In this document: in pieces, positions 2,180 through 2,274 of the stretch
Position numbering within the stretch: the stretch's first letter is position 1
Layout: each line of letters starts with the position of its first letter
Source: Escherichia coli
GTDB taxonomy: Bacteria; Pseudomonadota; Gammaproteobacteria; Enterobacterales; Enterobacteriaceae
Reading direction: 5' to 3' (one strand)
NCBI RefSeq assembly: GCF_003018115.1
Contig: NZ_CP027457.1
DNA length: 64,000 nucleotides
Notes under the pieces: model-generated
What the model was told of the DNA's origin: nothing
The model's input: only the letters and a program-made list of their open reading frames with translations
Databases searched by the model: none
Translations under genes and position numbers: made by a program

Positions 2180-2274
2180 TAAAAAAATAGAGTCTGTCGA
2201 CATCCGCCAGACTCTACAGTACACACAGCAGTGCATCCGCGTCTTAAATCCGGCATTGTCTCCTCTGCGCCGGT
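2180..2274 (-). ncRNA. mcaS: McaS (IsrA) small regulatory RNA
   Basis: Reverse complement reads ACCGGCGCAGAGGAGACAATGCCGGATTTAAGACGCGGATGCACTGCTGTGTGTACTGTAGAGTCTGGCGGATGTCGACAGACTCTATTTTTTTATGCAG, matching McaS as I recall it, ending in a hairpin plus U-run. Confidence 0.8.
2188..2216. terminator. Bidirectional intrinsic terminator hairpin shared by abgR and mcaS
   Basis: Inverted repeat TAGAGTCTG...CAGACTCTA flanked by an A-run on one side (U-run for the minus-strand transcript). Confidence 0.6.

Follow-up and report, generated by a model that had tools for sequence, protein, structure and literature searches.

Does a frameshift in abgR have any consequence for McaS, the small RNA encoded on the opposite strand just beyond the end of that gene? 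The question arises in a 64,000-nucleotide stretch of Escherichia coli DNA (the whole stretch analysed, referred to here as the window, whose numbering we use), where abgR and mcaS are convergent and a change of reading frame near the 3' end of abgR alters where its translation stops relative to the hairpin that lies between the two genes. We read the locus, with a probability of about 90%, as an unchanged and known sRNA beside an ordinary lineage-specific pseudogene, the two facts being independent of one another. The inherited insertion of one base in abgR truncates the C-terminal part of the effector-binding domain of the regulator and is probably without meaningful effect on the sRNA.

An Rfam cmscan of the whole window returns a match to RF00115 (McaS/IsrA) on the minus strand, running from 2274 to 2179 and covering model positions 1–96 of 96 without truncation, with a score of 118.4 bits (E = 1.9e-21) against a family gathering threshold of 42 bits. 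The K-12 gene mcaS (b4426; NC_000913.3, 1405658–1405751) maps to 2181–2274, and the whole RNA is 100% identical to that of MG1655, including the regions that pair with csgD and flhD. In the original prediction, McaS and its terminator occupied 2180–2274 of the minus strand, and an Rfam scan was proposed as a check; the covariance model does call McaS, the predicted ends lie within 1 nt of both the Rfam match and the mapped K-12 annotation, and strand and terminator are confirmed by the Rfam match, the K-12 identity and a fold that ends in seven U residues. The identity extends beyond the RNA. DNA alignments of positions 2065–2383, a span that comprises McaS, its terminator, the DNA downstream of the terminator, the putative −10 element and a CRP-like palindrome, contain no differences from either K-12 or GF3-3, and the approximately 110 bp upstream of McaS are 100% identical to K-12.

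The gene order abgA-abgR-mcaS-smrA-dgcM is likewise conserved, with mcaS located between abgR and smrA (ydaL) and convergent with abgR in the annotations of K-12 and of identical loci. All of the properties of McaS that can be addressed by sequence are therefore present here, namely the covariance model score, the structure, the GGA motifs, the synteny and the K-12 identity, and McaS in the window is the canonical, well-characterised E. coli sRNA of about 95 nt, already known, composed of two stem-loops and a Rho-independent terminator. The features of the locus are collected in Table 1.

Table 1. Features of the mcaS–abgR locus, in window coordinates.
Feature	Position	Strand	Details	Basis
McaS (IsrA/IS061) sRNA, full length	2179–2274	−	Start 2274; 3' end 2179–2181	Rfam and K-12 identity
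McaS stem-loop 1 (RNA nt 2–25)	2250–2273	−	GGA in 12-nt loop, nt 12–14	MFE fold and Rfam consensus agree
McaS stem-loop 2 (RNA nt 33–52 of Rfam consensus)	2223–2242	−	GGA at nt 37–39	Rfam alignment
McaS intrinsic terminator	2181–2217	−	Stem, GAUGU loop with fourth GGA, then U7	Rfam alignment and fold
Putative McaS −10 hexamer TATAAC	2281–2286	−	−12 to −7 relative to 2274	Position predicted from sequence
Putative CRP-like palindrome AGTGA-CAGATT-TCACG	2319–2334		Upstream of mcaS; identical in K-12 and UTI89	Predicted CRP assignment
abgR pseudogene, LysR-type regulator of the abgABT p-aminobenzoyl-glutamate operon	1263–2172	+		PGAP span in identical genomes
Frameshift site, TTTTAC to TTTTTGC	2059–2064	+		Alignments with K-12 and GF3-3
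Premature abgR stop TGA	2097–2099	+	Product 278 aa	ORF table
Former abgR coding tail, now untranslated	2100–2172	+	Ends at ancestral stop TAA 2170–2172

Several neighbouring features deserve mention. Two open reading frames in the ORF list overlap McaS, at 2128–2256 on the minus strand and at 2151–2276 on the plus strand, and there is no reason to regard either as a gene. The diguanylate cyclase gene dgcM (ydaM), whose product belongs to the csgD control pathway, is located at 3086–4318 on the minus strand, about 800 bp from mcaS; the proximity of dgcM to an sRNA gene that targets csgD is a known neighbourhood and is unchanged in the window. Four other RNAs are found by Rfam at full length and in their usual neighbourhoods: FnrS (5652–5769, plus strand, 134.8 bits), MicC (10580–10700, plus strand, 125.3 bits), RydC (53684–53747, minus strand, 92.5 bits) and the sok antitoxin of hokB/sokB (54307–54458, minus strand, 111.5 bits). 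The mcaS gene is absent from the PGAP annotation of RefSeq records with identical sequence and is listed in the curated K-12 record alone, a gap in annotation and not a biological difference.

The minimum free energy fold of the 96-nt McaS contains three hairpins followed by a U7 tail, with a central stem that departs slightly from the Rfam consensus. In the fold the terminator stem has 8+2 bp (RNA nt 60–86, window 2215–2189), and in the Rfam consensus 10+2 bp (RNA nt 58–88). Scanning 1900–2600 with a simple terminator pattern gave no sites; the pattern cannot handle the bulged McaS stem. A poly-U tail following the terminator is required for Hfq binding in sRNAs of the McaS class, GGA motifs are CsrA-binding sites, and there are four such motifs in the RNA, beginning at nt 12, 24, 37 and 70. 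They match the four that have been published for McaS (PMC10729762). In K-12, McaS represses csgD (curli) and activates flhDC (flagella) through Hfq-dependent pairing, and activates PGA synthesis by sequestering CsrA (PMC6061853, PMC3634460, PMC10729762); it also belongs to the cAMP-CRP regulon (PMC3634460). The putative −10 hexamer is identical in K-12, GF3-3 and UTI89. Since neither the RNA nor its proximal promoter differs from K-12, McaS would be expected to be made, and to function, in this strain as it does in K-12; the csgD, flhD and pgaA leaders on which it acts are located beyond the window.

The abgR gene, by contrast with its intact K-12 and GF3-3 counterparts, is altered. The window has GAAATTTTTGCCGAAA where K-12 and GF3-3 have GAAATTTTACCGAAA, a difference that amounts to one additional T and an A-to-G change at 2059–2064. 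From the ATG at 1263, the open reading frame now encodes 278 aa, of which 266 are native residues and the last 12 are new and out of frame, compared with the 302-aa AbgR of K-12 and GF3-3, whose stop codon is equivalent to the TAA at 2170–2172. The frameshift that the original prediction had described is thus borne out by both the DNA alignments and the end of the ORF at the TGA, as is the altered position of the abgR stop relative to the hairpin: the stop lies 79 nt before the McaS 3' end, rather than 6 nt as in the intact allele, which is a shift of 73 nt farther upstream. PGAP marks abgR as frameshifted in two genomes with identical sequence.

Pfam searches place the damage in the C-terminal domain. 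The truncated AbgR keeps its N-terminal HTH_1 domain (PF00126, residues 8–66, 74.5 bits) and lacks a complete LysR substrate-binding domain, as the match to LysR_substrate (PF03466) stops at profile position 176 of 209 (residue 265), compared with position 208 of 209 in K-12. Since the substrate-binding domain is truncated, AbgR most likely controls the abg operon poorly or not at all. The lineage also has a further change of its own in abgR, G to A at 1698, which gives the substitution D146N relative to both K-12 and GF3-3 and lies, like the frameshift, on a 1.3-kb segment that is 100% identical among the carriers of the frameshift.

Carriers of the allele are few among complete genomes. Of 5,426 complete E. 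coli genomes, only five have 100% identity over 1200–2500 or to a 91-nt probe across the frameshift site, and the next-best genomes after these five have the intact abgR allele. Four of the five are CP0242xx records (F9792, F8111-1SC3, F6326-C1 and 2014EL-1345-2), two of which are labelled O169:H41; the fifth, L7_E1373_ETEC, is the reference for ETEC lineage 7 and comes from a different submitter. Searched for by exact match, the 278-aa product is present on 330 contigs and in 668 index blocks, under names that include E. coli TA447. In five distinct allele-bearing contigs, McaS and the entire 2050–2500 region are exactly as in the window, and one of these contigs, ADIZ01000017.1 (GCA_002110175.1), matches the window without a difference for 10,099 nt. 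Other truncated forms of AbgR are also found, a 244-aa form on 375 contigs and a 193-aa form on 112 contigs.

Comparison with F9792 reveals further differences between carriers. There are 16 mismatches between F9792 and the window within the first 8.4 kb. A prophage attachment site at the 3' end of ttcA is empty in the window, whereas in F9792 it is occupied by a 46.5-kb Rac-like prophage with genes from intR, xisR, ralR, recET and kilR through to the tail fibres; a 43-bp overlap in the BLAST alignments at window positions 8422–8464 corresponds to the repeat that flanks this prophage. The feaB and ynbD genes are intact open reading frames in the window (20980–22479 and 43149–44441 respectively) and pseudogenes in F9792, through an internal stop and a frameshift respectively. 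Identity between the two falls to 96.9% in the ynbD segment, an indication that this patch has recombined.

The hairpin between abgR and mcaS has different flanks on the two strands. Read as McaS RNA, the stem gives way to U7. Read in the direction of abgR, it has A7 before it and CACACAGCAG behind it, and the first 10 nt past the stem contain no T. In a bidirectional intrinsic terminator, a U-rich stretch would have to follow the stem on each strand. The arrangement resembles such terminators in having one stable, G+C-containing hairpin between two convergent units, with flanking A and U tracts when read on the McaS strand, but differs from them in having no U-tract on the abgR strand. Because that tract is missing, the hairpin is, as judged from its sequence, a one-directional intrinsic terminator that serves only McaS, and the proposal that it is shared by the two genes is not supported.

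A different role for the hairpin on the abgR strand is nonetheless conceivable. Rho-terminated mRNAs are trimmed by exonucleases to a stable stem-loop that has no U-tract and has more C than G downstream, and these protective 3' stem-loop ends usually have no upstream A-tract (Dar & Sorek 2018, PMC6061677). The abgR strand has a stable stem-loop without a U-tract followed by C-rich sequence, the C/G ratio being 1.5–1.6 in plus-strand 78-nt windows beginning at 2150–2190, although it departs from the described class in possessing an A-tract, because this is the mirror of the McaS U-tract. It is plausible that abgR transcripts enter mcaS, that Rho would stop them farther on, and that they would then be trimmed back to the hairpin, which by this analogy could at most protect the 3' end of an abgR mRNA that is terminated by Rho. 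The supplementary 3'-end maps of Adams et al. 2021 (PMC7815308) and of TERMITe (PMC12207403) contain no match to mcaS, abgR or these coordinates, and a literature search found no relevant paper that deals jointly with McaS and abgR.

Two explanations would deny that abgR is a true pseudogene. The change extends a run of four T residues to five, a context that is prone to indel errors, and could in principle have arisen as an error during sequencing or assembly, the gene itself being intact. The probability of this is negligible: the change is a replacement of A by TG and not a pure change in homopolymer length, the same change is present in five complete genomes from two groups, the truncated product is encoded on 330 contigs and in 668 index blocks from many assemblies, and the 1.3-kb segment that carries the change is otherwise 100% identical across strains with differences in other regions. 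A sequencing artefact is ruled out on these grounds, and the frameshift is an inherited allele and a lineage marker. Alternatively, the truncated AbgR may still work, or slippage at the T5 run may restore a full-length protein. The truncated protein does keep its HTH domain and still covers about 84% of the profile of the substrate-binding domain, the allele has lasted across many isolates, and abgA and abgB are annotated as intact in genomes that carry it. We consider a functional AbgR quite unlikely even so, as the final 32 or so positions of the LysR_substrate profile are gone and unrelated residues stand in their place, and the gene is evidently dispensable, given that other truncations are common and that UTI89 has lost most of it. 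By reasoning alone we also rejected programmed recoding and transcriptional slippage, the T5 run being too short for efficient transcriptional slippage and there being no recognisable +1 recoding signal.

Granted that abgR is a pseudogene, the frameshift might still act on McaS in cis. An earlier stop could uncouple translation from transcription of abgR and so alter head-on polymerase traffic or antisense RNA across mcaS, and McaS levels with it, either because Rho would load on the naked and mildly C-rich tail and end abgR transcription before mcaS, or because the hairpin on the plus strand could form more freely. It is in keeping with this that the distance from the stop to the McaS 3' end has grown from 6 to 79 nt and that the 79 nt exposed (2100–2178) contain 23 C and 17 G. 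The missing U-tract on the abgR strand, combined with the downstream C/G ratio, is the signature described by Dar & Sorek (PMC6061677), which implies that abgR transcription normally runs into mcaS. Against it, the C/G ratio of the tail (1.2–1.4, or 1.1–1.4 in 78-nt windows starting at 2060–2110) is weak for a Rho loading site, and earlier loading on the exposed tail is possible, but not strongly suggested. Moreover, genes for LysR-type regulators are generally weakly transcribed, and would be expected to interfere little with an sRNA promoter that is strong and activated by CRP. Nothing has changed in the McaS terminator or in the DNA around it. Finally, UTI89 (a B2 strain) has a full-length RF00115 match of 112.8 bits beside a promoterless 196-bp remnant of abgR, which argues that McaS needs no convergent partner. 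An influence of this kind on McaS we judge very unlikely.

The suggestion in the original prediction that the frameshift could affect convergent transcription accordingly finds no support: the DNA from the frameshift site through the McaS promoter is the same as in strains with an intact abgR, and McaS is both unchanged in the five allele-bearing contigs and full-length in UTI89. An effect on convergent transcription that matters is unlikely. A specific version, in which Rho stops abgR transcription earlier, mcaS is exposed to less head-on or antisense interference and McaS rises slightly in the lineage that includes ETEC lineage 7 and O169:H41, would be a long shot; if true, a raised level of McaS would shift the balance between curli, flagella and PGA, and a mutation that turned one gene into a pseudogene would be acting in cis on the convergent sRNA, a small example of translation-dependent control of convergent transcription. 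For the preferred reading, of an unchanged sRNA beside an independent pseudogene, the consequences are modest. McaS is among the best-characterised sRNAs of E. coli and abgR is often truncated or deleted, so the observation matters little biologically, and its practical value is in annotation: mcaS should be annotated and abgR flagged as a pseudogene.

The persistence of McaS beside a degraded abgR is not peculiar to this lineage. McaS is matched in 5,304 of the 5,426 genomes and a probe for the abgR 3' end in 4,223 of them, and these population counts suggest that retention of McaS beside a lost abgR is common in E. coli; the arrangement was inspected directly in two genomes, UTI89 and FDAARGOS_943. 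Evidently abgR is often lost while McaS stays. In FDAARGOS_943 (L005, 2972–3071) a gene for an IS4-family transposase adjoins McaS, in which other sequence has taken the place of the U-tract and of the 3' half of the terminator; the match scores 63.3 bits with broken terminator pairs, and this McaS is genuinely disrupted.

The UTI89 McaS (L004, 3001–3096) agrees with that of the window in its terminator, stem-loop 2, −10 region and CRP-like site, and differs from it in the stem and loop of stem-loop 1, where it has GGUCACCAGGACCCCAGGCC in place of GGCGCAGAGGAGACAAUGCC; the UTI89 stem-loop still pairs and the GGA in its loop is kept. The region of the 5'-most GGA is reported to overlap an flhD-pairing site, and the UTI89 allele might therefore differ in its target preference. 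The UTI89 locus also differs in its surroundings, since abgABT and most of abgR are deleted and a gene for an AraC-family regulator is located upstream in place of smrA, whereas the window has a K-12-type McaS allele and a nearly complete abgR. The 96-nt sequence of the RNA, its structure and terminator, the four GGA motifs, the proximal promoter and the location of the gene between abgR and smrA are all common to the window and K-12 mcaS, and the differences between the two are two SNPs farther upstream, at 2384 and 2429, and the state of abgR.
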